From a virus, in the UHGV virus genome UHGV-0468246: a DNA stretch of 64,000 bases, one strand, 5' to 3'. Made by a program: the position numbers and the translations under genes. Below the pieces are notes generated by a model, which saw nothing but the letters and a program-made list of their open reading frames with translations, was not told the DNA's origin and searched no databases. Shown piece by piece: positions 14,330-39,688 of the stretch; the stretch's first letter is position 1; every line of letters begins with the position of its first letter.

Positions 14330-14623
14330 ATGATCTACCAGTTGGAGGCCATGCACGACGCGAAGAAGTCGTTCTACGGGAAGGCGCTCGTGGAATCGGG
14401 GGGGGGCACCCTGACGCTGTACAGCTACGGCGCTAAGGTGGCCGAGACGCAGGGGCAGGGCCGCATCGCGCTCTACCCGGACGCGGACTACAGCCCGACC
14501 ACGCGCAGGCACGTGAAGGAGTTCGTCAAGCAGCAGGCCGGGAAGTCCATATCGACCGAGGAGCTGCGCGCCGTCGTCGATGGGCGCATGCGCTTCGAGG
14601 ACGCGGGCCAGCCGCTCGCGTAG
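14330..14623 (+). CDS. Hypothetical protein (97 aa) with an internal G9 tract
   Basis: AGGAGG ribosome-binding site plus ATG at 14330. The G9 at 14398-14406 encodes ESGGGT. In frame with the spurious long ORF 13859..14623. Confidence 0.5.
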   Translation: MIYQLEAMHDAKKSFYGKALVESGGGTLTLYSYGAKVAETQGQGRIALYPDADYSPTTRRHVKEFVKQQAGKSISTEELRAVVDGRMRFEDAGQPLA

Positions 14624-14624
14624 C

Positions 14625-14650
14625 GGGGGGGGGGCTTTCGGCCCTCCCCT
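14625..14650. terminator. Convergent terminator hairpin built from a G10 run (14625-14634) and CCCTCCCC
   Basis: GGGGGGGGGGCTTTCGGCCCTCCCC between the end of the plus-strand gene (14623) and the end of the minus-strand gene (14650). Confidence 0.45.
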
Positions 14651-15402
14651 TACGCGTCGAGGATGCCGTTCAGCTCCTCCTCGTCCGTCATAACGCCAGC
14701 GGCCACAAGCTCCTCGCGCGTCCGGGCGCGACCGAGCCTGTCGTAGTCGTCGGCGATAACGTCGTAGTCTATCTCCGTCACGGACTGCGCGGCCTGAACG
14801 GGGATGGCCGTGAAGTCCATCTTCATGCCGATGGCCTGCGAGCGGGCGATGATCGAGGCGAGCTGTTCGGGCGTTACCACGCTCTTGACCGCCTCGCCGA
14901 TTGCCGCCAAGGCCATGTAGAAGCCCTGACGGTCGCCGTCGGCCATGAAGTCCCTCTCCTCCTGCGCCTTCTGCAAGCGCTCCATCGCCTCCATGATCTG
15001 CAACATCTCGCCGACGTTGCGCGGCCTTATCTTGCCCTCCGCAACGTCGCGCGCGCCCTGTATGAACATCGTCTGAAGCATGGACTGCGCCGTGATTCGC
15101 GGGGTCTCGCCGTCCTCGTTCACGATGCCCTTCATGATGATGCCCGCCTCCAAGGCGGTCTCTTCGAGATGGTGGTTCGCCATGTGGTTCTGAAGCGTGC
15201 GGGCGCGGAAGTCGGTGCCGTACGCCTTGTTGACGACGGACGCAAGCTCCGTCCACGACAGCGCCGCGCCGGTGACGCACGTCATCTCGATTGCCGCGCG
15301 GTCTGGGTGCGAGCACACCTTGCACTTCGCGGGCCTTCCCTTGCGTATGTTCTTCTGTGCGGTCATGTCGGCAATTCTACGACAAACCACCCATGAAAGC
15401 AA
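14650..15402 (-). CDS. Hypothetical DNA-binding protein (250 aa). Possible terminase small subunit; weak.
   Basis: Basic N-terminus KGRPAKCKVCSH followed by a helical acidic C-terminus. No terminase large subunit is in the window to support the assignment. Confidence 0.3.
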   Translation of the reverse strand: MLSWVVCRRIADMTAQKNIRKGRPAKCKVCSHPDRAAIEMTCVTGAALSWTELASVVNKAYGTDFRARTLQNHMANHHLEETALEAGIIMKGIVNEDGETPRITAQSMLQTMFIQGARDVAEGKIRPRNVGEMLQIMEAMERLQKAQEERDFMADGDRQGFYMALAAIGEAVKSVVTPEQLASIIARSQAIGMKMDFTAIPVQAAQSVTEIDYDVIADDYDRLGRARTREELVAAGVMTDEEELNGILDA

Positions 15403-15448
15403 AAGACCCCGCCTTACGCGGGGTCTCCGTGGCTCCTATGGGCGTTCG

Positions 15449-16703: not shown

Positions 16704-16734
16704 GGCTCTTCCTTTCTCCTTTTATCGGCAACGG

Positions 16735-17442: not shown

Positions 17443-17454
17443 GCCCGTCTCCTC

Positions 17455-17823
17455 TCACAGAAGCGGCGGCTGTTCCCAAGAGAACGTCTCGCCGTTTCTA
17501 AGCCTCACAGATTCAATCCTAGTTGCAGGGGGGGGGTCGTCCGCCTTCCCCGCCTCCTGCGGCATCTGGGGCACCTTTGCGGGCGCTTTCCAGTCGTCTT
17601 TGGTGTGGTACTCCGACGGGTGCCGCTCGAACTTCTGCAAGTAGTCGAGAATCTTCCCGCACGAATCGTGCCCGTAGCGGTAGAGCTTGCGCACCACCAC
17701 GCACGTCAGAACCGGGTCTACCTCGTTCTCCAAGAAGCAGTCGAGGAGCGGCTTCGGGTCGTCCGGGCCGCACCTCTCCAACGCTTCGAGGAGTTCGCGG
17801 TAGCCCTTCCTCTCACCGGGCAC
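17455..17823 (-). CDS. Hypothetical protein (122 aa) with a C9 coding tract near its 3' end
   Basis: The minus-strand poly-C (plus G9 at 17528-17536) encodes DDPPPAT. Confidence 0.45.
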   Translation of the reverse strand: MPGERKGYRELLEALERCGPDDPKPLLDCFLENEVDPVLTCVVVRKLYRYGHDSCGKILDYLQKFERHPSEYHTKDDWKAPAKVPQMPQEAGKADDPPPATRIESVRLRNGETFSWEQPPLL

Positions 17824-19664: not shown

Positions 19665-19691
19665 GTCCGTCTCCTTTCTCGATTATTTAAT

Positions 19692-19927: not shown

Positions 19928-19975
19928 CTGTTGTCTTAACTTTTTCTCTTAATTCTTTTTTTACTTTCGTCTTTC
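19928..19975 (-). repeat. AT-rich motif copy, minus orientation, with a TGTGGTAAGAT extended -10-like box (19909-19919) and a terminator hairpin (20008-20029)
   Basis: Minus-strand reading: hairpin GGGGCGGCC-atcg-GGCCGCCCC, then TTTGCTTTTCC, then GTAAAAAAAGAATTAAGAGAAAAAGTTAAGACAACAGTGAAGGAATGTGGTAAGAT. Confidence 0.55.
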
Positions 19976-20555
19976 CGCATCCTGTTGAAGAGCGGTGGAA
20001 AAGCAAAGGGGCGGCCCGATGGCCGCCCCTCTCAATCGCCCTGAAGCCCCCCCCCGGCGCTGCTCTTCCAGCGCCTCGTCCACGCGCCTCTCGATGCGGC
20101 CTTCCACGAGCCAGCACACGACCTCCGGCACCGTGAACGGATTGGAGGCGTGCCCTCCCGTAACCTCGTCGTAGACCTTGGGCACGATGTCGAGCAGCAC
20201 GCTGTAGTCGTGCAGCTCCGCAAGCACCTTCTCCTTCGAGAGCGCGCCGTCCTCGTCGGTCACGAGCCGCAGCCAGAACTCCTCGTCGAGCTCGCGCCTT
20301 TCGCCCCGCTTCTTCTCCGCGACCGCGCGCCCGGTCGTGTGCTCCGTTCCGGGGAACGGCTCGAACGTCACCGTCCCGTCGCCCGACCCGTGCAGCACCG
20401 TCGCGCCCTCGTAGCAGCCGTTGCACACGTCCATGTGCGCGCCGAGCGCGTACGGCTCCGTCTTCTGGCCCCATCCGTTGCGGTCGAGCCATACGGGCAC
20501 CACAACGCCGACGCGGATGTCTCCGTGGCCGAACTCGCCTCCGCACACCTCGCAC
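19961..20555 (-). CDS. Hypothetical protein (C-terminal part of track ORF 19961..20950; start uncertain) with a G9 coding tract
   Basis: CEVCGGEFGHGD...EVVCWLVEGRIERRVDEALEEQRRGGASG. The poly-G (plus C9 at 20047-20055) encodes RRGGAS near the 3' end. Confidence 0.4.
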
Positions 20556-20556
20556 C

Positions 20557-20979: not shown

Positions 20980-21206
20980 GCCTTTCTCCGCACCACGGGC
21001 AGAACGCCATGCCCTGCCCTTTGAGAACGTTCACCGAATCTAAGCACTCGCAATCATAGTCGAAGTCGATGTCCCGGAGGCCGAGTACCCATTGCCCGTC
21101 GGGAAAGGACGAACGCCCCTCATCGGGCCGGTATCTCCGGAGCGAGAAGCCCTTCGGCATCTTCCGGCACCGGTGCGTCTCGAAACCTGCATGTCGCGGG
21201 TCTCCG

Positions 21207-21415
21207 TCAGTCATAGCTCCACTCCCCCAACTCCACTTCCTCTCCGCAATGCGGGCACTCCACGCTCCCCCAGTCGTCCTGCCAGCATTCCGGCTCGTCA
21301 ACGTCCTCGAACGGCACGCCGGTCTGCCATCTGCAATGCGGGCACGTGAACGTGATGTCCACCGGCGCGCTGTTGATCGTGAAGTCGGCCTTCTCCTCGC
21401 GGCTCGTCATATCCT
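21207..21415 (-). CDS. Small zinc-ribbon protein (~69 aa, MTSREEKADF...)
   Basis: CPHCRW...CPHCGEE motif. C-terminal part of the track ORF 21207..21860. Confidence 0.4.
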
Positions 21416-21853
21416 TCCACCGTTCCTCTCCCTCGCGGCCTTTGCGCGAATCTCGGCGTACATGCGCTCCTCGTCCTCGCGCAGTATGCGGTAGGCGAGC
21501 CGCAGCTGTTCGAGGTCGAAGTAGCCGAAATGGCACTCCTCGACGGGTATGCCCATCCTGCCCGCCAGCCATTCGTACTGGCGCGTACGCTCCTTGCGCT
21601 TGTTCGGAGCGCCCAGCCACCGCCTGTCGAACAGCCGGTGGCAGAACTGCTTGCCGAGCCTCATGCGGTCGTCGGCCAGAAGCCCGAACGCCTCCTTCGG
21701 CCTCGGCACGTGCGTCCCGACGTACGCGCCGCACTCCGTGCAGCGGTAGCACCACCCGCTGCCGCGCTTGATGCCGTACACCTTCCTGTTGGGCACGTAC
21801 TCGACGCGCCCGCCGCACAGGTTGCACACGGTCGGCCTCTTCGGCGGAATCAT
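21407..21853 (-). CDS. Hypothetical zinc-finger protein (148 aa)
   Basis: CNLCGG...CYRCTECGAY motif. Confidence 0.45.
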   Translation of the reverse strand: MIPPKRPTVCNLCGGRVEYVPNRKVYGIKRGSGWCYRCTECGAYVGTHVPRPKEAFGLLADDRMRLGKQFCHRLFDRRWLGAPNKRKERTRQYEWLAGRMGIPVEECHFGYFDLEQLRLAYRILREDEERMYAEIRAKAARERNGGRI

Positions 21854-22650
21854 GCGCCAAGCTCCTTCCTGAACGCGCGGGATACCGCCTCGAACAGTAT
21901 GCCGTCGAGGAGCGCGTCCACGCTCTCGTCCGTTCTAAGGCCCCGTTCCTCGCAGAACGCGTCCGCCTTCGAGGAGATGCGCCTGCACGCCTCCTGCGCC
22001 GTCTCCGTGGCCTCTGCGGCGGTCATGCCGTCCCCGTCCCTCTTCACGCGAAGCAGCTCCGGGTGTCCCGACATGTCCAAGCACTCGCCGTAGGGCGCTC
22101 CCGCGACGTATCGGTCGATCATGATGTCGAGGCGCAGGATGTGGGAGAGCTGCTTCGGGTCGTAGCCGTAGCGCTCTATCCAAGGCATGCGGCTCGGGTA
22201 CTCGTGCGTGAGCGCGTTCAGCTTCTCGTGCGCCATGCCCTTCATGCACTTGACCGCCCGACCGGGGCAGTAGCGCGCGATCTCCTCGCGGCGGCGCAGC
22301 AGCTCCATCCACAGGTCGGCGTAGTCGTGGTTGAACAGGTGCCACTCCGTGAACAGAATCTCAACGAAGTTCACGTTCTGCTTGCGGAACGTCTTGAAGT
22401 ACTCGCGGATGTCCTTCACGTCGCAGTGCTCGCCGTTGCCCATCACGTGGGTGCGGCTCACCGCCTGACGGTTCAGCACGACATCCTCGAAGCATGGCAG
22501 CACCAGCAGCTTGCTGTCGATGTCGCTGCCCTCGTCGGAAAGCCCGTAGTTCTGCGAGCCTTGCAGGCAGATGGCGAACCAGTCGCCGCGCGCGTTTTTT
22601 TTAGATTCCTCCAAGTGCTCCGCGAGCCTCGCCGTCGGCAGGTCTTCCAT
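21850..22650 (-). CDS. Nucleotidyltransferase-fold protein (266 aa)
   Basis: GSQNYGLSDEGSDIDSKLLV fits the GS...D.D motif of DNA polymerase beta-type nucleotidyltransferases. Confidence 0.5.
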   Translation of the reverse strand: MEDLPTARLAEHLEESKKNARGDWFAICLQGSQNYGLSDEGSDIDSKLLVLPCFEDVVLNRQAVSRTHVMGNGEHCDVKDIREYFKTFRKQNVNFVEILFTEWHLFNHDYADLWMELLRRREEIARYCPGRAVKCMKGMAHEKLNALTHEYPSRMPWIERYGYDPKQLSHILRLDIMIDRYVAGAPYGECLDMSGHPELLRVKRDGDGMTAAEATETAQEACRRISSKADAFCEERGLRTDESVDALLDGILFEAVSRAFRKELGA

Positions 22651-22828
22651 ACTCTCTCCTCCTATCGTTCCAGAAGCGGACGGCGCGCTCGGGGTCGTTC
22701 AGGAAGCCCGTCTGGTTGCCGCACGCCTTGCAGCGCACGAACCACCTTGGCGGCTCCGTCCGGCCCGTCGCGTAGAGCGCCGCGCCGCCGCCGCATCCGC
22801 ATCGCTCTATTCTACTGGTAGATGTCAT
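22601..22828 (-). CDS. Lar-family restriction alleviation protein (75 aa)
   Basis: RCGCGGGAALY...WFVRCKACGNQTGF...AVRFWNDRR matches the Lar zinc-ribbon pattern. Confidence 0.6.
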   Translation of the reverse strand: MTSTSRIERCGCGGGAALYATGRTEPPRWFVRCKACGNQTGFLNDPERAVRFWNDRRREYGRPADGEARGALGGI

Positions 22829-23741
22829 AGTTCTCGCAGATTTCGCTCCAATTTTGGATAAGCCCCTGATAGCCGTCGCGCAGGTCGCGCAGCGTGCCCT
22901 TCTCCTCGTTCTCGCGCATCAGCACGTCGCGGTACAGCTCCTCGTCCCGGTACATCCGGACGTTCTCGTCTATGAGGCGGCTGATGACGCTGGGGTCGAG
23001 CGCGTCAAGCTCCCAGCATTCGTAGCCGAACCGCTCGATGTAGCCCTGCGCGCGGCTGTCCGACAGCTTCGTCGGGTTCGGCGGAGGCCCGAACTCCTCG
23101 ATCTGGTCGAGGTTCAGCGCGAGGCGGCGGAACTCAACGTCGTCGGCACTGAACAGCTCCAAGCGCGCCACGATGTCGCGGCTCATGTCCTTGCCGCTGG
23201 GGTCGTGGTCGCCGAGGTGCAGCAGCACCGCGTGCTGCCCAGCGTCGCAGCGCCGCTTCAGGCGCATGGCCGCTCCCCACAGCTCGCTCTGGCTGGTGTA
23301 GCCACGGCACGAGAAGCACGCAACGTCCAGCTTGTCGCTGATCTGCTCCACGATGCCTATGAGCGCGTCCTTCTCCACCCACACCTCGACGTAGTTCTCC
23401 TGCCCCTCCCAGTAGTCGATGTGGTACTGGCGGGCTATCGCGTCGATGATCTCCTGCGGCTCCTCCCAGTGCGGGCGGCGGCGCAGGTTGCGCGTGCGGT
23501 CTTCGATGGCGTGCCAATCGACGAGGCCCGCCAAGCGCGCGTCGTTGATGAGGTTGCCGAGGTTCTTGTAGCTGCGGATGTTGTTCGGGATGATGTCGCG
23601 CGACACCATCTGGTAGTAGAGCTGGCGCAGCGTCAGGCCGTACCCCTGCGCCTCGTACTCGGCCACTATGCCGTTGGCTATGCCGATGAGTTCCAGCTTG
23701 TCGTCGCGGAACGTCTTCTCGATGTACGCTATCTTAGGCAT
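22812..23741 (-). CDS. Spo11 / topoisomerase VI subunit A-like protein (mini-A, 309 aa): CAP tyrosine motif plus Toprim
   Basis: LRQLYYQMVS matches the R(D/Q)(I/L)YY catalytic-tyrosine motif. VEVWVEKDALIGIV carries the Toprim glutamate (vvEKd). HLGDHDPSG matches the Toprim DxDPxG motif. It overlaps the stop of the upstream GHKL gene by 8 nt. Confidence 0.6.
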   Translation of the reverse strand: MPKIAYIEKTFRDDKLELIGIANGIVAEYEAQGYGLTLRQLYYQMVSRDIIPNNIRSYKNLGNLINDARLAGLVDWHAIEDRTRNLRRRPHWEEPQEIIDAIARQYHIDYWEGQENYVEVWVEKDALIGIVEQISDKLDVACFSCRGYTSQSELWGAAMRLKRRCDAGQHAVLLHLGDHDPSGKDMSRDIVARLELFSADDVEFRRLALNLDQIEEFGPPPNPTKLSDSRAQGYIERFGYECWELDALDPSVISRLIDENVRMYRDEELYRDVLMRENEEKGTLRDLRDGYQGLIQNWSEICENYDIYQ

Positions 23742-24948
23742 CCTCGCCCTCCTTCTCCAAAAGCCCGTCTATCTCGTCGCGTATGAGGTGCATGCCGAAG
23801 AACCGCAGGTCGTCCGAGTTGTCGATGATCTCGCGAAGCTCGGCGCGCGCACGCTTCGACAGGCGCGGCTGCCCTTTGAGCCAGACGAGAATCTTCTTGT
23901 AGTCGCTCTTGCCGAAGGCGTTGACTGCGGCCTCCCTGCTGGCGTTCGACGACACCTTCGCCTCCAAGTCCTCGAACTCGTCGAGCGCGTCGTCGGCGAT
24001 GGCGATTATCTTGGAGACGATCTTGCTCTCCTCGTGGAACGCGCTCGCCTCGGCGCTGCCGCCGAGAACCTGCCACATGCCCTTCGTCCCGACGAACGTG
24101 CCCTCGTCAAGCCCGTTCTTCTCGAAGTAGTAGCGCTTGAAGCCCTCGCACTGGTCTTCGTCTATCTCGTCGAGGACGGCGCTTGCGTCGGACACGTCCA
24201 GATGCTTCTCGCCGAGCGAGTTGACGAGCAGGCTCACGTCCCCGCACGACGTGAGGGCGCGGGCCGTAAGCTCCTTCAGCTCGTAGTGGTTGATCGCCTT
24301 GCGGTCTCGGTCGAGGCTCACGTGCTCCGGCAGGAAGTCGTAGCCGTACGCGAAGCCGGTGTCCTCCTGCACGAACAGGCCGCCGACGTAGAACTTGCCC
24401 TTGTAGCGGCTCTCCAACATGATCGTCCCGTACTCGCTCTCGCGCTTCGCGCCGATGTCGCGGCCCATGAAGCGTTCGAGGGCTATGAACCTGTCCCCGA
24501 AGGAGCGCATCATGGCGGGCGAGATGCCGCCGATGCGGAACTCCGTGAACTCGCCGCCCGGAACGCCGGTCTCCTCCACGTCGATCTGCAACGATTCCTC
24601 GCCGAACGTCTCGGACAGGCGGAACTCCGGTGTCCAAGTCTCCGCGTCGGTGACGACCTTCACCGGCTTGCGCTCGCGCGTCAGCACCAGAAGCGCCAGC
24701 TTGTATCCCTCGCCGTACTTCCCGATGTAGCGCTCGTCGTCCTTGCCCGATTCGCCGAGCAGGAGCGTCGATGTCTTCAGTCGCGCGCCGTCGGTGAGGA
24801 TGGACAGCGTTTCGCGGTCGTACGACACGGACACCTCCGCCCCGTCCGCCTTCTGGTCGATGGCGTTCTGCAAAATCTCGCGGACTGCCTCCTCCACGCC
24901 CCAGCCGCTCACGTACTTGGGCGACAGGCTCAACTCGATGGTCTTCAT
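23734..24948 (-). CDS. GHKL (Bergerat-fold) ATPase, topoisomerase VI subunit B-like (404 aa)
   Basis: N-box EILQNAIDQ and G2 box IGKYGEGYKLAL. Lies immediately upstream of, and translationally overlapping, the Top6A-like gene. Preceded by ribosome-binding site, palindrome, -10-like box, AT-motif and terminator. Confidence 0.55.
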   Translation of the reverse strand: MKTIELSLSPKYVSGWGVEEAVREILQNAIDQKADGAEVSVSYDRETLSILTDGARLKTSTLLLGESGKDDERYIGKYGEGYKLALLVLTRERKPVKVVTDAETWTPEFRLSETFGEESLQIDVEETGVPGGEFTEFRIGGISPAMMRSFGDRFIALERFMGRDIGAKRESEYGTIMLESRYKGKFYVGGLFVQEDTGFAYGYDFLPEHVSLDRDRKAINHYELKELTARALTSCGDVSLLVNSLGEKHLDVSDASAVLDEIDEDQCEGFKRYYFEKNGLDEGTFVGTKGMWQVLGGSAEASAFHEESKIVSKIIAIADDALDEFEDLEAKVSSNASREAAVNAFGKSDYKKILVWLKGQPRLSKRARAELREIIDNSDDLRFFGMHLIRDEIDGLLEKEGEDA

Positions 24949-24962
24949 GGCCCTCCTTGCTC

Positions 24963-24978
24963 TCGATTAAATAATCGG
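24963..24978 (-). promoter_or_regulatory. 16-bp palindrome copy 4 (TCGATTAAATAATCGG) between the TGnTAAGAT -10-like box (24988-24998) and the ribosome-binding site of the GHKL gene
   Basis: Read on the minus strand: CCGATTATTTAATCGAGAGCAAGGAGGGCCATG. Confidence 0.6.
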
Positions 24979-25000
24979 CCTTGACCCATCTTACCACAAG

Positions 25001-25050
25001 CCTTAACTCTTGTCTTAACTTTTTCTTTCTTTTTTTATCTTACAAAAGAA
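25001..25050 (-). repeat. AT-rich motif copy, minus orientation, beside the terminator hairpin at 25053-25075
   Basis: Near-identical to the copy at 12087 (CTTAACTCTTGTCTTAACTTTTTCTTTCTTTTTTTATCTTACAAAAGAAA). Confidence 0.6.
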
Positions 25051-25052
25051 AA

Positions 25053-25075
25053 GGGGAGGGCTTGTGGCCCTCCCC
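25053..25075 (-). terminator. Hairpin GGGGAGGGC-ttgt-GGCCCTCCCC with a T-rich tail on the minus strand
   Basis: Stem-loop followed on the minus strand by TTTTCTTTTGT. Confidence 0.55.
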
Positions 25076-25076
25076 G

Positions 25077-25407
25077 TCACCACGCCGTCTGCCTGCGGAA
25101 CGGGCATCTCGTCCGAGAGCACGACTTCCTCGCCACCTCGACGGCGCAGCACGTGTTCGCCTGATCTCCGCACATAGGGGACGCCACGTGCCAGCCGGGG
25201 CCTAGAACCGTTTCGGCCAGCCGGTCGAGGGCGGCCTGCGCGTCGGTCGGCTGCGGCATGATGCCGTAGTCCCCGCCGTTGCCGGTCGCCCCGCTTTCGT
25301 CAACGAACGAGAGCGTGATCTGATACCCTCTGTTTATGTTGTCCATCTGCTGGTCGAAGTCCTTCTTCTCCATCTTGGTCGGGAACTTCGCCTCCATGCT
25401 CCCGCAT
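25077..25407 (-). CDS. Hypothetical protein (~110 aa, MEAKFPTKMEKK...)
   Basis: C-terminal part of the track ORF 25077..25616 from its first plausible ATG. Confidence 0.4.
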
Positions 25408-25414
25408 GCCGCCG

Positions 25415-26118
25415 TCACCCTTCGCATGCCCCTCCTATCTCCTCCAACGTCCTGCGCTTCATGTTGCCAAGCACCTCCTCCATGGCGACGAGCCGCCGCC
25501 AGCAGTCTGGCAGGTTCTCCTTGATCGCGCGCAGTTCCTTCTGGTTCTTGTTCTTGCAGCACCAGCACGACACCCTGTCCAAGATGTCGTACAGGCGCAC
25601 GCCGTCCTGCTCCCACTCATGGCCGTGGGCGTAGCACGCGGCGAGGCAGTCGGCCTCGCGCATGCCCCAGTCAGCGAGCGGGAAGCGCTTGTAGGGCTTG
25701 CGCTCCTTTTCGAGGCGCGCCGTCTCGTCTGCGGCTATGCCGACGTACACGGTCGCCCCCCCCAGCTCCCTCTCCGCATGGCGGTCTATCGCCCGCAGCT
25801 TCTCGGTCGTGCCCCAGCGGCACGGGCCGCCGCACCAGCCGTAGCCGTGCTTGTGGACTTCGCCGGTCTTCCGGCTTTTGACCGGGCGGCAGAACATGCT
25901 CCACCAGAACGGGTCTTTGGGGCGCAGCTCGACGTAGCGGATGCCGTTCTCGCGCAGCAGCGGCAGCATGCGGTCGCGCTCGGCGTAGATCGCGTCGAAC
26001 TCCATGCCCGTGTCGTAGAAGACAACCTCGTCGAGCGGCATGCCGCGCTCGATCAGGCCGTGCAGCATGGCGAGGCTGTCCTTGCCCCAGCTGACGCTTG
26101 CGATGCAGCGCTTCATGG
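25415..26118 (-). CDS. PAPS reductase / PP-loop ATP pyrophosphatase family protein (~234 aa)
   Basis: Probable start MKRCIASVSWGKDSLAM. The SWGKDS motif matches the PP-loop SGGKDS, followed by a CWCC cysteine cluster. An internal G8 tract (plus C8 at 25756-25763) encodes LGGAT. Confidence 0.65.
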
Positions 26119-26279
26119 CTACCCTTCCCTCTCGTCGGCGCGCCTGCGCCTCGCGGCCCTCTTGTCCTGCTCGGCCTTGCACTCCGGGCCGCAGTATTTC
26201 TGGTTGCGGGAGTTCTTCGCGAACGTCCTCCCGCACACCGGGCACGTCCCCGTGCCGCGCGCCTTCCAACCGGTCATCC
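26119..26279 (-). CDS. Small zinc-ribbon protein (~53 aa, MTGWKARGTGTCPVCGR...)
   Basis: C-terminal part of the track ORF 26119..26559. Confidence 0.35.
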
Positions 26280-26657
26280 CTCGCTCCTCTCCCTCGGCAT
26301 CCCTCCACGGTAAAGCCCCGCCTCCTTCAGTCGGCGCAGGGCGAGCCGCTGCCTCGCGTTGCACCGCCCTAGGGCGCAGTCGTTCCACACGGCCACGCAC
26401 CGGGTCATCTCGCACAGAGCGTCCATGCACCCGCAGGCGGGCAGCACGTCCCACGCCTGACCCTGCTCGACGAAGCCGCGCAGGCGCATCAGCTTGCGGA
26501 CGAGCCATTCCTGATGCGACGGGACGGCGTAGTGCGGCGTTCCTCCCTCGTCGATGCACACCTCCAAGTAGTTCACGAAGGTCGCCTTGTGCGTCTCGAT
26601 GTCGAAGGGGGAGCGCAGCACGCGCTGCTGCTCCGACGCTCCGGGGAGGCTACTCAT
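26274..26657 (-). CDS. Hypothetical protein (127 aa)
   Basis: ORF. Confidence 0.45.
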   Translation of the reverse strand: MSSLPGASEQQRVLRSPFDIETHKATFVNYLEVCIDEGGTPHYAVPSHQEWLVRKLMRLRGFVEQGQAWDVLPACGCMDALCEMTRCVAVWNDCALGRCNARQRLALRRLKEAGLYRGGMPRERSEG

Positions 26658-27477: not shown

Positions 27478-27757
27478 CGCAGCCGCCCTTCGGCTCGTCG
27501 AGCGCGGCCTGCGCGTCGCGCAGAGCGTCGGCGACCATGCGCCCCATGCGCCTAGCCCAGCAGAACAGCAGGAAGGCGCACAGCACGAGGAACGAGGCGT
27601 AGCACAGGAAGCCCCATGCCGCCCCGAACATCACGCCAGCGCCTATGGAGCCTACCAGCCCCGCAGCTCCGAACAGCAGGCCTCCCAGCAGCCACGAGCA
27701 GCCGATCAGCGCGTCCCCGTCCTTGTCGCTCTTGCTCACGTCGAACTCCATCCTCAT
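27464..27757 (-). CDS. Small membrane protein (97 aa, two predicted transmembrane segments)
   Basis: Two hydrophobic stretches: LIGCSWLLGGLLFGAAGLVGSIGAGVMFGAAWGFLCYASFLVLCAFLLF. Confidence 0.45.
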   Translation of the reverse strand: MRMEFDVSKSDKDGDALIGCSWLLGGLLFGAAGLVGSIGAGVMFGAAWGFLCYASFLVLCAFLLFCWARRMGRMVADALRDAQAALDEPKGGCDGDD

Positions 27758-28221
27758 CGCTCGCCCTCCGGCTCCGTCGGAAGCTCAATCCACCTCTTGC
27801 AGTTCTCCACGTTCTGGGAGAACGACAGCAGCACGTCGTCCCAGCCCTCCCCGTCGGGCGGAGGGCCGAAGCTGCAAGACACCCCGGTCTCGTGCCTCTC
27901 CCCCGTGATCGTCATGACGTAGGACAGGCGCGGCTCCTCCGCCCCGTCGCGCTTCAGCACGTCGAAGGCGTACTCGATGCCTATGGGCGTTCCAAGCCTC
28001 GCCTCCTCGCGCACCTTGGCGCGCATGCGCTCGACGACGGCCACGAACTCGTCCGGCACCCCCGCCTCGCGCATCTCCTTCTTCCACGCCCTCGGCCCCG
28101 GCTCAACGCCGGGGACGTACCGCTGCATGCTGACCGGCCCTTCCATCACAGCCCCTTCCTGTGCTCGTCGTCGAGGCGCGCGTACTCCCTGCGCTCCTTC
28201 TGCGTCGATGCGCGCAGGCAC
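27754..28221 (-). CDS. Hypothetical protein (155 aa or shorter)
   Basis: ORF. Confidence 0.4.
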   Translation of the reverse strand: MPARIDAEGAQGVRAPRRRAQEGAVMEGPVSMQRYVPGVEPGPRAWKKEMREAGVPDEFVAVVERMRAKVREEARLGTPIGIEYAFDVLKRDGAEEPRLSYVMTITGERHETGVSCSFGPPPDGEGWDDVLLSFSQNVENCKRWIELPTEPEGER

Positions 28222-28493
28222 GCCTCGGCCTCCTCGTCCGACACGTCGAGGCCGATGCCGTCGGGCGTGCGGAGCACGATGCGGCGCAGCCCGTTCTTCA
28301 ACGTGTACTTCATGTAGACCTTGACCGGCGTTCCCTCCGGCGTGACCACGGGCGCGCCGTCCTCCCCGTAGGTGGTCAGGTCGCAGTCGAGGGCGTAGAC
28401 GCTCCCCATGCGCTTAGTCATCGGCCCCTCCGATCTCCGCGTAGCAGCCGGGCCGCCAGCGCTCGCCCTCCACGTCCTCGGGCAGCGGCGCAA
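28146..28493 (-). CDS. Hypothetical protein (115 aa or shorter; likely starts MTKRMGSVYALD)
   Basis: ORF. Confidence 0.4.
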   Translation of the reverse strand: MRRCPRTWRASAGGPAATRRSEGPMTKRMGSVYALDCDLTTYGEDGAPVVTPEGTPVKVYMKYTLKNGLRRIVLRTPDGIGLDVSDEEAEACLRASTQKERREYARLDDEHRKGL

Positions 28494-28908
28494 CGGGGCG
28501 GATGTGCCCGTGCGAGACGTGCAACATGTCGCAGCGGTTGCCCAGCGGCTTCAGCTCCTCCATGGCGCGAAGGGCGCGCCGCACGGTCTCCGGCAGCTTG
28601 CGCGCGTCGTCGCGCACGCCGACCGAGATGCGCAGGGAGCGACCGTCGAACGGCACGCTTTCGTACGGGCAGACGGCCCTGCCGCATGACAGCTGCGCGC
28701 AGAACTCGACCGTCGTGCGCATCTCCTCGCCCTCGATCTCCCCGGACGTGTTGCCGTAAAGAAGGTAGCCGCCGATCTTGCCGTTGCCCTTCGCCTCGCG
28801 CAGCATGTTCGAGCAGCGGCGCACGGCATCGACGCTCTCGTCGTCGTCGATGCCGAACGCCTCCAAGAAGCGCTTGGCCTCCTTCAGCTCCTTGCCGTTG
28901 CCTCTCAC
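28414..28908 (-). CDS. Hypothetical protein (~164 aa, GTG start)
   Basis: AAAGGAG ribosome-binding site plus GTG at 28908, directly downstream of palindrome copy 5 (28924-28939). Confidence 0.45.
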   Translation of the reverse strand: MRGNGKELKEAKRFLEAFGIDDDESVDAVRRCSNMLREAKGNGKIGGYLLYGNTSGEIEGEEMRTTVEFCAQLSCGRAVCPYESVPFDGRSLRISVGVRDDARKLPETVRRALRAMEELKPLGNRCDMLHVSHGHIRPVAPLPEDVEGERWRPGCYAEIGGADD

Positions 28909-30660: not shown

Positions 30661-30672
30661 CGTCGTTTCCCT

Positions 30673-31116
30673 TCACCATCGTATTCCGTGCGCCGCGCGG
30701 CGCTTCAGCTCGCCCTCGAACACCGCTTTCAACGCTTCATGCCATGTGCCGAACGACGCGTACCATCCTCCGATGTGCTCCGACGGCGGCTCCTTCGGCA
30801 GCTCCATGATCTCGCCCAGCAGCCAATCGGAGGACGGGAGCCTTTTGAGCAGGTCGAGTATCGTCGAGCGGCCCATCATGGTCACGGGCTGGTAGCCGCC
30901 CTTCCATACCTCCCATTCCGACACCCCTCCGTCGCGCCTGAAGAACCGGTCGAAGCGCTCCTTCGTTCCGGGGCTTCCGCGCCGTCGGCGGGCATGCGGC
31001 AGTCCGTGCGCCGGTCGATTGCCGGAGTTGGTGCGAACGCCGAGCGACGCTATGCGGTCGAGCACGCGTTCGTCGCGGTCGATCATGTCGTCGATGAAGT
31101 CGTCTGCCATGCTCAT
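30673..31116 (-). CDS. Hypothetical protein (147 aa) with a G9 Shine-Dalgarno-like tract directly upstream
   Basis: ATG at 31116. The G9 (plus C9 at 31122-31130) lies between the stop of the upstream gene (31130) and this ATG. Confidence 0.5.
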   Translation of the reverse strand: MSMADDFIDDMIDRDERVLDRIASLGVRTNSGNRPAHGLPHARRRRGSPGTKERFDRFFRRDGGVSEWEVWKGGYQPVTMMGRSTILDLLKRLPSSDWLLGEIMELPKEPPSEHIGGWYASFGTWHEALKAVFEGELKRRAAHGIRW

Positions 31117-31129
31117 GTCTGCCCCCCCC

Positions 31130-31315
31130 CTACTCGAACGCAGCGTCGCGGGCAGCGTCCACCATGTCGTCGTAGTACATGGCCTCGCGCTCCTCGAACC
31201 GCTCCCAGTACGCGCTCGCCTCGGCCTCGTACTCCTCGTAGGTGTCGAAGTCCTCCGGGTCTGGCTGGTTCTCCTCGGCCCTCATGCGGGCGTAGGCTGC
31301 TGTGAGGTTCGCCAT
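31130..31315 (-). CDS. Hypothetical acidic protein (61 aa)
   Basis: ATG at 31315, preceded by GAAGGAGCAAAGACC and palindrome copy 7. Confidence 0.45.
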   Translation of the reverse strand: MANLTAAYARMRAEENQPDPEDFDTYEEYEAEASAYWERFEEREAMYYDDMVDAARDAAFE

Positions 31316-31330: not shown

Positions 31331-31346
31331 TCGATTATTTTATCGA
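31331..31346 (-). promoter_or_regulatory. 16-bp palindrome copy 7 (TCGATAAAATAATCGA on minus). The 35-nt cassette is near-identical to copy 1.
   Basis: Read on the minus strand: TTGTGATAGTCTGTTCCCAGTCGATAAAATAATCGAGAAGGAGCAAAGACCATG. Confidence 0.6.
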
Positions 31347-34784: not shown

Positions 34785-35256
34785 GCACGCCCACCAGCTT
34801 CAGCATTCGCCCCAGCTCCATCGCCAAGACCTCCTCGCTCCAAGCGCCGTCGGCCATCGAGGCGACGAGCGGCAGCGCGGTCTTCTCCGATATTCCCAGC
34901 GACATCCGCACGCCCTTCTCGCACACGGCGTAGCTGTCCCAGTTCGCCTCGTTCGCCTCCCACATCTCGCGGAAGTCGCGATGCCGCATGATTCCCACCT
35001 CGCGCCCGCTCGACAGCTTGACCGCGACCATGGGCACGCGCATCTCGTTCATGGCCCACTCCGAGACGCTGCGCCACATCTTCGACGAGAGCGTGTACCG
35101 CTGCGTCTCGGTGTACTTGCAGTCCACGAGGAGGCGGGAGGTCTTCACGTCGCCTTTGTACCCCGTGAGGCGGCCAGACGCTTTAACGAGGTCGCCGCCT
35201 ATGCGCCCGGCCATCTCCTCTTCCCAGAGCTGCCAGCCCGGTTTGCCGTAAGACAT
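34774..35256 (-). CDS. PD-(D/E)xK-like nuclease-fold protein (~160 aa, MSYGKPGWQ...)
   Basis: ATG at 35256, immediately after a G9 tract (plus C9 at 35260-35268) that follows the RecA stop. LLVDCKYTE matches a D...(D/E)xK-like motif. Confidence 0.4.
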   Translation of the reverse strand: MSYGKPGWQLWEEEMAGRIGGDLVKASGRLTGYKGDVKTSRLLVDCKYTETQRYTLSSKMWRSVSEWAMNEMRVPMVAVKLSSGREVGIMRHRDFREMWEANEANWDSYAVCEKGVRMSLGISEKTALPLVASMADGAWSEEVLAMELGRMLKLVGVHED

Positions 35257-35267
35257 TTGCCCCCCCC

Positions 35268-36431
35268 CTATTCCTTGAACTCGCCAGCGCCAGCGTCGGC
35301 GGTCTTCAGGTAGCTTTCCGATTCTCCGATGACGACGGCCATGGTGTCGTCGTGCACGGCCTTGGCGAACTCCGGGTTGTCGCGCAGAAGGCCAACCATC
35401 TTCGCCTTGCCCTGCGCCTTCACGAAGCCCTTCTCGCCCTCGGTGCCGTAGGACATCCACGAGCCGGACGTTTTCAGAACGCCGTAGGATACCGCCAAGT
35501 CCACGAGGCTGTCGGCGCTGTCAACGCCGAACGGATGGTCTGGCGTTTCGGTGTAGTAGAACATGTACCCGGCCTCGCGGTACGGCGTTGCCAGCTTGTT
35601 CTTCCGGTTGCGCGTGATGATGCGCGTGCCGATCTTGACGCGCTCGCCGTGGATGTCGGCCCACTTGATGTCGTCGGCCTTGCCGGATGCCCTGATCTCC
35701 GTGATGGTCTTGCACATGTGCTTCAGGCCCTCTCCGCCGGAGATGATGAGGCCTCCGTGGGGCGACTTCAGGTTGATGCGGGCTTGGCCTATGTAGATGA
35801 TGACGGGCAGCACAACGTCCGCACCGGCGCGCTTGGCGTTGCTTATGCGGGTAAGCTCCGCGTTCACGCGGTTCACCATGCGCGTGATGACCCCGGCGCT
35901 ACCGGCGACCTGCATGGCGTTAGCGTCGCCGCCGTCGCCCTTCTTGCCATCGACCTCAACGCCGCGCGCGACCGCGCCCAAGCTGTCAACCACGATCACG
36001 TCGAAGATGCCCTCGCGGATGATCGCGCAGAGGCTGTTGGCGGCGTTCTCAACGGTGTCGGGGGTCGAGACCCACACGCGGTTCTTGCGCGGGTTGTCGT
36101 AGTCGAACTCTATCCCGTCGAACTTCTCCAACCATTGCGGGGTTACGCTTCCCTCGATGTCCACGATACACGCAAGCGCCTTCGGGTCGAACGACAGGAG
36201 ACGGCCTATGGCGCAGTTGATGAGCGACGACTTGCCAGCCGAGTACTCGCCCATCACCATGTGCTGGTGCCCTCGCATCCACCCTCCGCCCAGCGCCGCA
36301 TCGAGCGTGTCCGCGCCGGTCGATATTACGCCGACCGAGTAGTCTATCTGCTGGGTCGGCACGAAGAACGAGCCGGGAGCCTCGTTCTTCAGAAGGTTGT
36401 CCAAACCTTTCTCCCTGTTCAGTCCCATCAC
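35268..36431 (-). CDS. recA: RecA-family recombinase
   Basis: ISTGADTLDAALGGG, Walker A GEYSAGKSSL and IVVDSLGA align with the RecA core. Confidence 0.85.
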   Translation of the reverse strand: MMGLNREKGLDNLLKNEAPGSFFVPTQQIDYSVGVISTGADTLDAALGGGWMRGHQHMVMGEYSAGKSSLINCAIGRLLSFDPKALACIVDIEGSVTPQWLEKFDGIEFDYDNPRKNRVWVSTPDTVENAANSLCAIIREGIFDVIVVDSLGAVARGVEVDGKKGDGGDANAMQVAGSAGVITRMVNRVNAELTRISNAKRAGADVVLPVIIYIGQARINLKSPHGGLIISGGEGLKHMCKTITEIRASGKADDIKWADIHGERVKIGTRIITRNRKNKLATPYREAGYMFYYTETPDHPFGVDSADSLVDLAVSYGVLKTSGSWMSYGTEGEKGFVKAQGKAKMVGLLRDNPEFAKAVHDDTMAVVIGESESYLKTADAGAGEFKE

Positions 36432-39400
36432 ATTGCCTCTCTTTCTCTTTGCGGGACAACCGGCATGAAGTGCTCTAGCACGTAGTTGTCCTCGTCGTTT
36501 CTAAGCTGCTTCTTCACCTGCATCAGGAAGTAGCAGTCCTGATCGCCGCGTATGTGGCGCTCGATCATCTCCCACATGTCCGTGAAGCACGTCACGTCGA
36601 TCTGCGTGCCGTCCATGTCGCATTTGAGGAACGCCATCGGCCTGCCCTTCTTGGTGACGATTCGCTTCACGTCCTCCAACAGCACGAGCACGTTTGCGCA
36701 CGCCTCGTACGCAACGTCGTCAAGCTCGTCGGCGGAGCAGATCGAGGCCGCGTAAGGCTCGACGGCCCGCAGAACGTCCTCGTACGGGTCGAAGGTCAAG
36801 GGCATGCCTATGGCGCTCTTCTCCATCTCTATGATCTCGTCCTTGGTGAAGTCCGGCTGCTCCTGCGTGAACCGCACGGTCGAAGCGTCGCCGAACAGGT
36901 TGGCGCTCATGTCGTTGTTCTCGAACCTGTGCAGCAGGTCTTTCGCGTTGGGATGCCACTCGCGGAAGAACCTGTTCTTGACGAGGATGCGGACGACACC
37001 GTTGTTCGCGCCGCTGCGCGACTTGAAGTCCTCGAAGTCGGCGTAGGGCGCTCCCGCGAAGATGCTGCGCACGGCCTTCTCCCCTATGCCCTTCAGCGAG
37101 CCGATGCCGATGGCGATGGTGCGGTCGTCGAGGATGGCCCAGTCGTCCGATATGTTCGTCACCGACGGCATCGTGATCTGGAAGCCCTTCTTGCGGGCCT
37201 CGCGCATGTACTTCGGAAGCGCCTTCGGGTCAACCGTCTGGAAGCAGGCGCAGTAGAACTCGACGGGGTACATGAACTTCATCCACGCCGTCCAGAAGGT
37301 GATCTTCGCGTAGCTGTAGCTGTGGGCCTTGTTGAAGGAGTAGAGGCCCGATGCCTTGATCTGGTTGAAGATCACGGTCGCGTCCTCCGCCGATATGCCG
37401 CTGTGCCGCACGCACCCCTCAACGAACTTCGGCTCCTCCGCCTCCATCTCGCGCAGCTTCTTCTTGCCGATGATCGAGCGCATGTGGTCTGCCTCCAAAG
37501 GCGTGTAGCCCGCCACCTGCTGGCATATCGCCATGGACTGCTCTTGGTAGACGATGACCCCGTACGTGTCCTTCAGGATAGGCTCTAGCTGCGGCACGAC
37601 GTACGACACCTGCTCCCGCCCCAGCTTGCGGTTGATGAACACCTGCAACATCCCCGCGAGGATAACGCCGGGGCGGTAAAGCGCCACGATTGTTGACAAG
37701 TCCATGACGGAGCGCGGGGCGAGCTGCTGCGCGCAGGCCGTGATGTCCTTGCCGCCCATCTGGAAGATGCCCAGCGTGTCGCCCTCGTCGAACAGCCTCC
37801 ACACCCCTTCGGGGGCCTGTGCGTCTTCGAGGGCGCGGAAGTCGATGCGCACGCCGTGGCGCTGCTCGACCATCGTCCGCGCGTTCGCGAGGGTGGACAG
37901 GTTGCGAAGCCCCAGAAGGTCGGCCTTCAGGAAGCCCAGCGCCTCGATTGCCACCTTGTCGAACTGCGCCACGATGTCGCCCGTCTTCAGGGACAGGCGC
38001 GTGGGCATCGCGCTCGAAAGCGGTATGGGGGAGACGACGTAGCCAGCCGCGTGCTGCCCCCACTGGCGCGGCACGCCGATGAGGCGCGAGACGTACTTGA
38101 AGACGTTGGGGAAGCGCTGCATCATCGTGTCCAGCTCGCGGCGCTCCTTGTCGGACAGTATGTCGAGATGGTCGAGCCATTCCTTCGGGTTCTTCAGGGC
38201 CTTGTCGAACCGTTCCAAGGTCGCCTTGCAGCGCAGGGCCTCTTGGTGCGGGAGGCGGTAGTAGCGCGCCAAGTCCTCGAAGGCGTTCTTTATGCCGAAC
38301 GTCCCGACGGTGCCCACCGCGCACACGTGGTCTTTGCCGTACTTCTCGTTCAGGTAATCGACGACGCTGTGGCGACCGGCCACGTCGAAGTCGAGGTCGA
38401 TGTCGGGAAGGCTGTCCAGCCGCCCTTCGTTGAGGAAGCGCGAGAAGATCAGGCCGCGCCCCATCGGGTCAACTTCGGTAATGCCGGTTGCCCAGCAGAG
38501 TATGGAGGCGGCGCACGACCCGCGCCCCGGCCCGACCTCCACGCCGTGCTCCTTCGCCCAGCGCGTGTAGTCCGAGACGATCAGGAAGTAGTCCGCCAGA
38601 CCGTTGTCAACGATGATCGGGAACTCGTTCTCCGCCACGTCCTTCAGGTACGGCACGAGCCGCGCCTTGTCGCCGCCCCTGTACTTGATCTTGTGGGGGT
38701 CGTCGTCGGGCAGCACCTCGCACCCACCGGCCTTCTCGAACAGCCCCTTCGCCGTGAGGTACTTCAGGTACTCCCCGCTGTCGTCCCATCCCTCCGGCAG
38801 GGGGAACTTCGGAACCTTGTGGGAGCGGTCGAGGTCGTATTCCTCGATCATCGAGAGAAGGTGGTCTACGCCGTCGAAGCAGCGCTCCAAGTCCTCGTCG
38901 CCGATGTAGGCGAGGCGCTGGCGCACCTCGGCCTCGTCCATCATGTAGTAGTCCTGCTTCATGTGCATGTGCGTCTCGTCGTAGTGCTTGCCCATGTTGC
39001 AGCCGAGCATGACGTTCTGCAAGTCGCAGTCCTGCGGGGTGACGTAATGGCTGTCGATTGCGTAGATCGTGCGGATGCCGTGCCGCTTCGCGAAGTCGAG
39101 CAGCCACATGTTGACGCTGCGCTGCTCCGGCTCGCTGTTCGTGTGAATCTCGATGAAGAACTCGTCGAAGATGGCCCGGAACCGCTCGGTGAACTCCAAC
39201 GCCATCTTCTCGTCGTCGGCCTTCGCGGCCCTCGACAGGGCACCGGCGAGGCATGCGGAGCCGCATATAACGCCCTCGCGGCGCTCTCCCAAGTCCTCCC
39301 ACAGCGCGTTGGTGTACGCGTCCTTCCCTTCCTCGTGCAGCCAAGCCTTCGACGAGATGTCCCAGAGGTTGTGAAGCCCCTCCAAGTTGCGCGCCCAAAG

Positions 39401-39661
39401 GGTCAGGTGGAAGCCCTTCTTGTTCGTGTTGTGGTACACGCCGTCCTTCAGGTACAGCTCGCTTCCGAGTATGGGCACGATGCCGTTGCGCTTCGCCGCC
39501 TCGAACATGGCGTAATGGCCCACGCAATGGCCGTGGTCGGTTATCGCCTGATAACGGCTCCCGACCTCGACCGCGCGCCTGCACATGTCCTCCGGGTCGG
39601 CGAGGCCGTCTAGGAAGCTGTAGTAGCTGTGCGCGTGAAGGTTCGCGAACTGATGAGGCAT
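36428..39661 (-). CDS. dnaE: DNA polymerase III alpha subunit-like replicative polymerase (PHP domain plus polymerase core, 1077 aa)
   Basis: PHP motif HAHSYYSFLDG...ITDHG. Size and architecture match DnaE. A G9 tract (plus C9 at 39668-39676) acts as a Shine-Dalgarno-like element 6 nt before the ATG. Confidence 0.85.
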   Translation of the reverse strand: MPHQFANLHAHSYYSFLDGLADPEDMCRRAVEVGSRYQAITDHGHCVGHYAMFEAAKRNGIVPILGSELYLKDGVYHNTNKKGFHLTLWARNLEGLHNLWDISSKAWLHEEGKDAYTNALWEDLGERREGVICGSACLAGALSRAAKADDEKMALEFTERFRAIFDEFFIEIHTNSEPEQRSVNMWLLDFAKRHGIRTIYAIDSHYVTPQDCDLQNVMLGCNMGKHYDETHMHMKQDYYMMDEAEVRQRLAYIGDEDLERCFDGVDHLLSMIEEYDLDRSHKVPKFPLPEGWDDSGEYLKYLTAKGLFEKAGGCEVLPDDDPHKIKYRGGDKARLVPYLKDVAENEFPIIVDNGLADYFLIVSDYTRWAKEHGVEVGPGRGSCAASILCWATGITEVDPMGRGLIFSRFLNEGRLDSLPDIDLDFDVAGRHSVVDYLNEKYGKDHVCAVGTVGTFGIKNAFEDLARYYRLPHQEALRCKATLERFDKALKNPKEWLDHLDILSDKERRELDTMMQRFPNVFKYVSRLIGVPRQWGQHAAGYVVSPIPLSSAMPTRLSLKTGDIVAQFDKVAIEALGFLKADLLGLRNLSTLANARTMVEQRHGVRIDFRALEDAQAPEGVWRLFDEGDTLGIFQMGGKDITACAQQLAPRSVMDLSTIVALYRPGVILAGMLQVFINRKLGREQVSYVVPQLEPILKDTYGVIVYQEQSMAICQQVAGYTPLEADHMRSIIGKKKLREMEAEEPKFVEGCVRHSGISAEDATVIFNQIKASGLYSFNKAHSYSYAKITFWTAWMKFMYPVEFYCACFQTVDPKALPKYMREARKKGFQITMPSVTNISDDWAILDDRTIAIGIGSLKGIGEKAVRSIFAGAPYADFEDFKSRSGANNGVVRILVKNRFFREWHPNAKDLLHRFENNDMSANLFGDASTVRFTQEQPDFTKDEIIEMEKSAIGMPLTFDPYEDVLRAVEPYAASICSADELDDVAYEACANVLVLLEDVKRIVTKKGRPMAFLKCDMDGTQIDVTCFTDMWEMIERHIRGDQDCYFLMQVKKQLRNDEDNYVLEHFMPVVPQREREAM

Positions 39662-39688
39662 TCCGTGCCCCCCCCCTATCCATGTCTC

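Follow-up and report, generated by a model that had tools for sequence, protein, structure and literature searches.

Length-variable G/C tracts as probable contingency loci in a gut phage related to Eggerthella phage LE2-3

The homopolymer tracts of Bordetella fim and of Neisseria porA/opc lie in promoter spacers. Campylobacter phages reportedly carry polyG tracts at tail and receptor-binding genes, and these tracts are said to have been proposed as a means of diversifying host recognition, in work attributed to Sorensen et al. 2021 (Cell Rep 35:109214; cited in PMC10877375). In Campylobacter jejuni, nine is the modal length of the polyG/C tracts, and insertions are favoured at G8-9 and deletions at G10-11 (PMC3401435). 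Homopolymeric tracts are described in Bordetella pertussis as well (PMC1891110), and phase variation through such tracts is known in the Mycobacterium tuberculosis complex (PMC10334774). Coliphages T2/T4 and others encode simple-sequence-repeat contingency loci of their own (Gomez, Barrick & Waters 2025 preprint, PMC12633550). The subject here is a set of G/C runs in a 64,000-nucleotide stretch of the virus genome UHGV-0468246 (the window), which has a GC content of 63.6% and shares 98.2-99.6% identity with Eggerthella phage LE2-3 (MW679026; 111,961 bp; host Eggerthella lenta DSM 2243). These tracts, most often nine bases long, are probably mononucleotide contingency loci that change by slipped-strand mispairing. 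As the phage DNA is replicated, such mispairing would often add or remove a G:C pair, with lengths held near nine, and the outcome would be set by the location of the tract: the reading frame at 14398 and 25756, the C-terminal tail at 17528 and 20047, and promoter spacing at four sites called P1-P4.

Length spectrum and variability of the runs

An earlier note on this DNA, made from the letters alone, had listed runs of nine or more bases and described their placement as non-random. Its coordinates for the runs are all correct in the window sequence, as is its count of eleven runs of at least nine, the four in promoters included (Table 1). The note expected about five such runs; a model of independent, identically distributed bases gives about 3.3. 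That model is itself the wrong null, because actual runs become about fivefold rarer with each extra base. The window holds 349 runs of four G or C, 58 of five, two of six, none of seven, one of eight, nine of nine, two of ten, and none of 11 or more, and the empirical decay, when extrapolated, predicts about 0.03 runs of at least nine in place of the 11 counted. In a control of 132 kb of bacterial DNA at 69% GC, there are 38 runs of six, two of seven, one of eight, and none of at least nine. The spike at nine together with the empty control means that the tracts are a discrete sequence class and not the tail of a compositional distribution, which bears out the claim that their number and placement are non-random. 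The spectrum of LE2-3 is likewise bimodal (5 runs of six, 0 of seven, 5 of eight, 10 of nine, and 1 of ten), and in the pooled sequence of the lineage (623 kb) the counts for lengths five to 11 are 630, 25, 1, 41, 98, 8, and 3. The A/T runs of the window are also bimodal, with none of six and seven of seven or eight bases; they include A8 at 4838-4845 (A9 in LE2-3) and T7 at 19956-19962 (T9 in LE2-3), at terminator or intergenic sites.

The lengths of the tracts differ among natural genomes. About 90 loci were retrieved by exact-protein look-ups from independent gut-metagenome assemblies (ENA, JGI, and Logan), and each length given is the consensus of one assembly, that is, of one sample. Of the 33 indel events that separate the window from LE2-3, 7 are inside tracts, which make up 101 bp, so that indels are enriched 149-fold there (P=1e-13), and 37 of 142 site-by-assembly observations (26%) lie away from the mode of their site. 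Both results agree with the earlier claim of hypermutability. The comparison with related genomes that had been proposed as a check finds lengths that differ between assemblies beside flanks that are essentially unchanged, and every class of tract shifts by about one base. Since all 12 assemblies give nine at P4, and 11 of 12 do so at P3, the variation at other tracts is not assembly noise. At 14398, three pairs of haplotypes that are one single-nucleotide polymorphism (SNP) apart in the SNP matrix differ in tract state, which points to recurrent switching; recombination is a possible alternative source of these changes. Lengths can also jump abruptly between near-identical genomes, from G5 to G9 at 20047 and from GGGA to G8C at 30668, with no intermediates seen, and tracts are gained or lost between genomes 99% identical. 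Some contigs (L006, L042, L043, and L046) terminate within tracts, a hint of heterogeneity within populations.

The extent of the tracts among relatives was followed by grading these on the identity of their DnaE homologues. Tracts are present in L006 (99% DnaE identity, 62% GC); L007 (87%, 62% GC) has three G9 within 12 kb, and L008 (78%, 52% GC) has G9, G8, and C9 within 23 kb. In L004, L009, and L010 (67-68%, 37-39% GC), the longest G/C run is at most six, so the tracts are confined to the higher-GC branch of the phage group. A search of IMG/VR with DnaE returned one relative only, at 37% GC and without tracts, an exact look-up of RecA matched LE2-3 alone, and the literature on Eggerthella phages makes no mention of homopolymers. 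As a separate observation, GC content spreads unusually widely for one phage group, from 37% to 62%, across the window and its syntenic relatives L004, L008, L009, and L010, whose DnaE identity is 67-78%. In L009, an A8 run stands directly 5' of the Shine-Dalgarno (SD) sequences of dnaE and primase, the genes at which higher-GC relatives carry G9.

Table 1. Tracts of the window and an adjoining palindrome, with the lengths found among assemblies (number of assemblies in brackets)
Feature	Span	Strand	Run (plus-strand letters)	Arrangement	Lengths
P1	2668..2699	+	C10 2681-2690	TTGACA (2668-2673), 20-nt spacer with the run, TACGAT (2694-2699); 5' of 146-aa gene 2735..3175	7 (1), 9 (8), 10 (2), interrupted as CCCCACCC (1); 12 assemblies
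P2	3172..3202	+	C9 3185-3193	TTGACA, 19-nt spacer with the run, TACCAT; 5' of 166-aa gene 3230..3730	8 (1), 9 (10), 10 (1)
P3	3727..3757	+	C9 3740-3748	TTGACA, 19-nt spacer with the run, TACGAT; 5' of 147-aa gene 3783..4226	8 (1), 9 (11)
P4	4229..4259	+	C9 4242-4250	TTGACT, 19-nt spacer with the run, TACGCT; 5' of 157-aa gene 4288..4761	9 (12)
14398	14398..14406	+	G9 14398-14406	codons 23-26 (SGGGT) of 97-aa gene 14330..14623 (frame analysis)	G9 (5), G8 (6)
14625	14617..14656	+	G10 14625-14634	hairpin between convergent genes; run is the 5' arm, paired with CCCTCCCC	8 (1), 9 (6), 10 (2), 11 (3)
17528	17528..17536	-	G9 17528-17536	C9 on sense strand, Pro-Pro-Pro, 27 codons before stop of gene 17823->17455 (frame analysis by GC at third codon positions, GC3)	9 (2), 8 (3)
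20047	20047..20055	-	C9 20047-20055	G9 on sense strand, near 3' end of gene 20560->19961 (frame analysis)	5 (1, LE2-3), 9 (2), 10 (1); three contigs terminate within tract
25756	25756..25763	-	C8 25756-25763	G8 mid-gene, PAPS-reductase-like gene 26308->25415 (PF01507), in frame at G8 or G5	G9 (7), G8 (2), G5 (1); natural genomes
31122	31116..31132	-	C9 31122-31130	TAG stop of 61-aa gene, G9, CAGAC, ATG of 147-aa gene	8 (8), 9 (1, window), 6 (1, L032), GGGAGGGG (2)
35260	35254..35270	-	C9 35260-35268	recA TAG stop, G9, CAA, ATG of 160-aa Holliday-junction-resolvase-like gene (phrog_2002)	9 (10), 8 (3)
39668	39659..39676	-	C9 39668-39676	G9, CACGGA, ATG of dnaE	9 (4), 8 (4); close lineage
Palindrome	39689..39704	-		16 bp, sense-strand CCGATTATTTAATCGA, 12 nt 5' of dnaE tract; kept in L007, L008; candidate promoter/operator	

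Tail-fibre-like genes, promoters, and other sites of the tracts

The strongest signals, which the earlier note overlooked, are ON/OFF frameshifts at 14398 and 25756 and the clustering of tracts in tail-fibre-like paralogs. In LE2-3, 9 of 16 tracts fall in 6 kb of such paralogs, where 0.87 would be expected (P=3.5e-7). Just past the right edge of the window, at LE2-3 70381-74373, there are about nine paralogous proteins of 135-160 aa with C-termini of the form ..HNNMPPY..W(K/E/R)RTA*, which match Gp10_C in Pfam and tail or collar fibres in PHROG, and G8-9 tracts are found in five of them. Ten natural 20-kb loci have all of their runs of at least seven in this Gp10_C array and none in the remaining 16 kb or so. 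The four genes downstream of P1-P4 (2735-4761) encode proteins that start MAxLKYRG and are annotated in LE2-3 as tail fibre or structural proteins; the 147-aa product of 3783..4226 (P3) matches a tail-fibre C-terminal tip (phrog_2712, E=1e-12). A Pfam search of ten tract-associated proteins gave no match for nine. The PHROG and Pfam matches suggest that the tract-bearing tail-fibre-like genes may have a role in receptor binding.

The Gp10_C array varies from 2 to 10 genes among natural genomes (L051-L060, positions 1-4700), with fused open reading frames (ORFs) of 279-585 aa, which suggests that recombination among paralogs may be frequent, besides tract slippage. Four paralog types would be in frame with G10 or G7 at their internal tracts, and the segment downstream of the out-of-frame tracts is open and conserved. 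The LE2-3 protein LE23_93, which has 306 aa and is annotated as a "tail protein" (LE2-3 70381-71301; L002 20381-21301), is a frameshift chimera in which two Gp10_C-type paralogs are joined across G9 tracts, and locus tags 94 and 95 are absent from the record.

At P1-P4, the run sits in the spacer of a predicted promoter. The -35/-10 hexamers (TTGACA/TTGACT; TACGAT/TACCAT/TACGCT) are kept in the four paralogous copies and TG-C9 in every one of them, and the 5 nt between the -35 and TG vary. Promoter strength would be expected to vary with tract length, and contraction to C7-C8, which gives a spacer of 17-18 nt and accounts for 3 of 48 observations, would put P1-P4 in the spacer range of sigma-70.

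Inside genes, the tracts at 14398 and 25756 bear the signatures of ON/OFF switching, and those at 17528 and 20047 the signatures of C-terminal-variant switching, visible in the DNA itself. The 97-aa gene at 14330..14623 (phrog_4264; DUF8033 in precomputed Pfam) is in frame with G9, and either G8 or G10 leads in silico to a product of 27-35 aa; 5 assemblies have it in frame, and 6 have it frameshifted. The PAPS-reductase-like gene is in frame in three genomes (twice with G8 and once with G5, an in-frame contraction), and at G9, the state in 7 of 10 genomes, it is broken into 148 + 82 aa. The earlier note had placed a C8 at this site; the position is right, and on the sense strand (minus) the run is a G8, in frame in the window. 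This gene lies in a 7.6-kb segment (window 21010-28584) that is missing from LE2-3 and carried by many metagenomic genomes; its other Pfam matches are DUF3268, TerY_C-like, and Tad8-like, and the segment is an accessory region with a possible role in counter-defence.

The two tracts near 3' ends alter the tail of their product. In silico, C9 at 17528 gives 122 aa and C8 gives 105 aa. The gene containing 20047 starts at 20560 (GTG) and not, as had been thought, at 20555, and its tract is five codons upstream of the native stop (..RRGLQGD*). The native end requires G5, G8, or G11 and is found in LE2-3 (G5) only; the predicted products of the tract variants have 174, 199, or about 289 aa. With the G9 of the window, 31 extra codons are added, reading across a terminator hairpin. 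The genuine genes of the window have a GC3 of 0.82-0.91, and frame analysis found no coding signal in the alternative frames at either site. The proposal that tracts near 3' ends yield alternative C-termini holds at both in the DNA, where switching is directly seen and is sufficient without transcriptional or translational slippage. At 14625, the run belongs to a hairpin with a folding energy of -31.7 kcal/mol (z -3.55) and a tail, CCCCUUACG, that lacks a U tract; a change in tract length would alter the length of the stem.

At 31122, 35260, and 39668, the run occupies the position of an SD sequence. On the minus strand, each site reads TAG9CA, then 1-4 nt, then ATG, which leaves 3-6 nt from the end of the run to the start codon; as the earlier note had stated, no other SD-like element is present. 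In two of the three, the run begins within the stop codon (TAG) of the gene before it. Relatives hold GAGGTAA, GGAGGT, or TAGGGAGG at these positions. On the 5' side of dnaE, a canonical GAGGTAA is found in L009, L010, and L004 and a GGAGGT in L006, which has a recombined 5' end; the tract itself is G9 in L007 and G8 in L008. The 31116 junction reads TAGGGAGG in the outgroup L007, TAGGGAGGGG in LE2-3 and L034, and TAG8 in most of the close genomes, and the 30660 junction reads AAGGAGGGG in L007, G8 in LE2-3, and GAAGGGAAACG in the window. The primase gene is preceded by G9CAATG in L008 and by GAGGAGGTG in LE2-3. The recA/resolvase junction of L008, L009, and L010 lacks the tract, and the genes overlap. 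Judged by outgroups, the run at 31122 arose by a change from TAGGGAGG to TAG9, and a second derived case is LE2-3 109872. The tracts at the 31116 and 30660 junctions come from canonical G-rich SDs in which an A-to-G change merged two G-runs into one. For the dnaE and recA runs, relatives have a canonical SD or no tract, and either state may be the ancestral one.

Pairing of a G-run with CCUCC would need one G:U wobble. A one-base change leaves the 3' edge of the run as far from the ATG as before and should therefore hardly affect initiation, and at these three sites the run would serve as the SD element with length changes nearly neutral. The suggestion that tract length tunes the translation of dnaE is mechanistically weak on these grounds. 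Perfect GGAGG is found at 40 of 138 gene starts in LE2-3 (modal spacing 6) and a G8-9 run at 3, and SD use as a common role of the tracts fits only 3 of the 12 in the window.

Some further features lie close to these sites. The 5' region of dnaE (window ~39661-39740) is mosaic among strains (L006 9442-10014, L038 1-606, L037, and L039), and some strains have an additional gene there (GIY-YIG in L038), another DnaE N-terminus, and a canonical GGAGGT instead of G9. An upstream ORF at dnaE was dropped as a candidate, as it is not kept in L007. The palindrome in Table 1 is one of five in the window with the form TCGAT(W)6ATCGA (8140-8155, 12673-12688, 31331-31346, 39689-39704, and 61349-61364). 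LE2-3 has nine copies, L007 and L008 have it too, and low-GC relatives have the form CTCAATAAATTAATTGAG. Copies are mostly 10-15 nt 5' of an SD or start codon and often downstream of a terminator hairpin, and the element may act as promoter or operator in an early/middle regulon. One copy in LE2-3 adjoins an element at 57003-57061 (L002 7003-7061), TTGACA..C10..ATAACGG, which comes immediately after the major capsid gene and is antisense to every neighbouring gene. The DnaB-like helicase (LE2-3 95260-97605; window ~42945-45290, minus) has 781 aa and a LAGLIDADG_3 match in the LE2-3 lineage and 433 aa in L008, L009, and L010, which suggests a possible intein or homing-endonuclease insertion in the longer form.

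The CA flank and competing explanations

Several observations weigh against reading the tracts as contingency loci. The base that follows the run on the G strand is nearly always C, and CA follows in 16 of 23 independent contexts (P=2e-9), compared to a background of 9-14% after G3-G5 runs; such a flank is not predicted by simple slippage. It is kept even where its A is the first base of an ATG (L007). At C9-C10, the spacers of P1-P4 are 19-20 nt long, beyond the 16-18 nt range of sigma-70, and a sigma-70 scan with 16-18-nt spacers called 0 of 4. The internal tracts of the Gp10_C paralogs, with 12 OFF and 1 ON, are nearly always one or two bases too short for the frame and are a poor match to balanced ON/OFF switching. 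The lengths are consensus values, one per sample, and mixed lengths within a population are a prediction of the reading. Mutation pressure plus tolerance could also give a like pattern. Set against these points, E. lenta is reported to phase-vary its capsule and thereby escape a lytic phage (PMC13131767). A host of this kind, together with tracts that target tail-fibre-like genes, makes it plausible that switching is adaptive bet-hedging, in which, for example, fibre tips would be varied against the changing capsule.

In a purely neutral account, G-rich SDs, Gly codons, and hairpin arms would fuse to runs of at least six, slippage would push these to about nine, and they would be found at tolerated sites only, without any evolved function. 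At least two tracts (31122 and LE2-3 109872) demonstrably come from canonical SDs, many are at tolerant sites (3' ends, intergenic positions, and the hairpin), a mode of nine is the mutational attractor in C. jejuni (PMC3401435), and tracts come and go between genomes 99% identical. However, this account does not fit the clustering of tracts, roughly tenfold, in families of tail-fibre-like paralogs and in the promoters of these, the retention of C9 in four paralogous promoters of 12 genomes, or the persistence of the dnaE tract at 78-87% DnaE identity, with one lineage at 52% GC. The intact out-of-frame C-terminal segments of the paralogs, the in-frame "locked" G5 alleles at 20047 and 25756, and the non-random CA flank also speak against it, and as a full explanation it is unlikely, if worth serious consideration. 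Programmed recoding would instead make the out-of-frame consensus the working state, with the product made by RNA-polymerase slippage or -1 ribosomal frameshifting. It would explain why four Gp10_C types need G10 or G7, yet have G9 or G8 in 12 of 13 cases, and why the downstream ..HNNMPPY..W.RTA* segment stays open and conserved; the split G9 state of 25756 in 7 of 10 genomes fits as well. But G8 and G9 alleles would require opposite shifts, the alternative frames at 17528 and 20047 have no coding signal, and the switching observed directly in DNA suffices, all of which makes recoding improbable. A combined scheme of targeted diversification is speculative and rather unlikely: a G9-CA motif would hold fibre-tip paralogs one base too short for the frame, their expression would come from rare slippage by DNA, RNA, or the ribosome to give a virion mosaic per burst, and a phage or host factor recognising G9CA might promote or limit the slippage.

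The main reading of the earlier note was that G9 is a specialised SD variant selected for ribosome binding or coupling. It has in its favour that three window tracts end 3-6 nt from an ATG that has no further SD-like element, that two of these tracts start in a TAG stop, and that relatives have canonical SDs at the same positions; it covers only 3 of 12 window tracts and 3 of 138 LE2-3 starts, though, and leaves the promoter, coding-sequence, and hairpin tracts unaccounted for. One junction varies between GGGAGGGG, G6, G8, and G9 among near-identical genomes, and a dedicated translation signal is distinctly improbable. The CA flank raises the thought that G8-10 plus CA is a recognition motif bound by a regulator, nuclease, or primase of phage or host, with length variation incidental. 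Both its frequency relative to background and the narrow length distribution, with TG-C9 in all promoter copies, would suit such a motif. Yet the placement of the sites with respect to genes follows no shared pattern, a candidate for the binding protein did not emerge, the length is variable, tracts are swapped for GGGAGGGG without other change, and the strand bias is confounded with gene orientation, so a recognition motif is very improbable. Among specific candidates, a Chi-like, primase-site, or nick-site motif was rejected for that same confounding and for wrong spacing, a G-quadruplex because a single run is insufficient to form one, a MerR-type spacer operator because dyad symmetry is absent, and an ECF-type promoter on the opposite strand because it conflicts with the SD and with gene orientation. 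The CA flank was also dropped both as SD context, since only 2 of 40 GGAGG are followed by CA, and as a codon-usage effect. Finally, homopolymers are error-prone in sequencing and assembly, and some contigs do end inside tracts; an artefact is nevertheless hardly credible, given that an isolate genome has the tracts, as do dozens of assemblies made by differing projects and assemblers, and given that P4 and P3 are nearly invariant while 14398 splits 5:6 in like data.

Significance and comparison with known systems

Human gut metagenomes very commonly contain this phage lineage, single proteins of which are indexed in over 1,500 blocks of the assembly collection. Its host, E. lenta, is a commensal that metabolises drugs, is associated with disease, and is under consideration for microbiome editing with phages. 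If the phage does phase-vary its tail-fibre paralogs and accessory genes, both partners would be hedging their bets, which would help to explain their coexistence, and the selection and quality control of therapeutic phages would be affected. Annotated genomes already contain frameshift chimeras such as LE23_93, and consensus genomes hide functional heterogeneity.

Contingency loci in phages are already known, and the nearest phage precedents are the polyG tracts of Campylobacter phages and the loci of T2/T4. What is unusual here is the presence of tracts in promoter spacers and at SD positions, the CA flank, and the targeting of a paralog array. A close likeness is to the polyG/C contingency loci of C. 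jejuni, which share the mode of nine, the narrow range of 8-11 (PMC3401435), ON/OFF sites within reading frames, and recurrent changes that are independent of the flanks. In contrast to C. jejuni, the present tracts belong to a lytic phage of a high-GC Gram-positive actinobacterium, are replicated by the DnaE of the phage, are found also in promoter spacers, SD positions, and a hairpin, and have a conserved CA on their 3' side. As in the T2/T4 contingency loci, reversible frameshifts occur across functional gene classes and are read as bet-hedging (PMC12633550); the differences are the sharply bimodal spectrum with its G9 spike and the setting, which is natural metagenomic populations and not laboratory evolution. 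The M. tuberculosis complex is comparable as a high-GC actinobacterial system in which G/C runs of at least seven frameshift reversibly; the tracts described here differ in belonging to a phage, in their greater length (mode 9), and in their clustering in tail genes. As in promoter spacers of the Bordetella/Neisseria type, a C-run lies between the -35 and -10, where slippage changes the spacer; here, however, the promoters are predicted only, and the modal C9 spacer of 19 nt is off the usual optimum, with C7-C8 in 3/48. Compared to the Campylobacter phages, the phage lineage and the host phylum are different, and the tail tracts here belong to arrays of small Gp10_C paralogs and to the promoters of four fibre-tip-like genes that stand alone.

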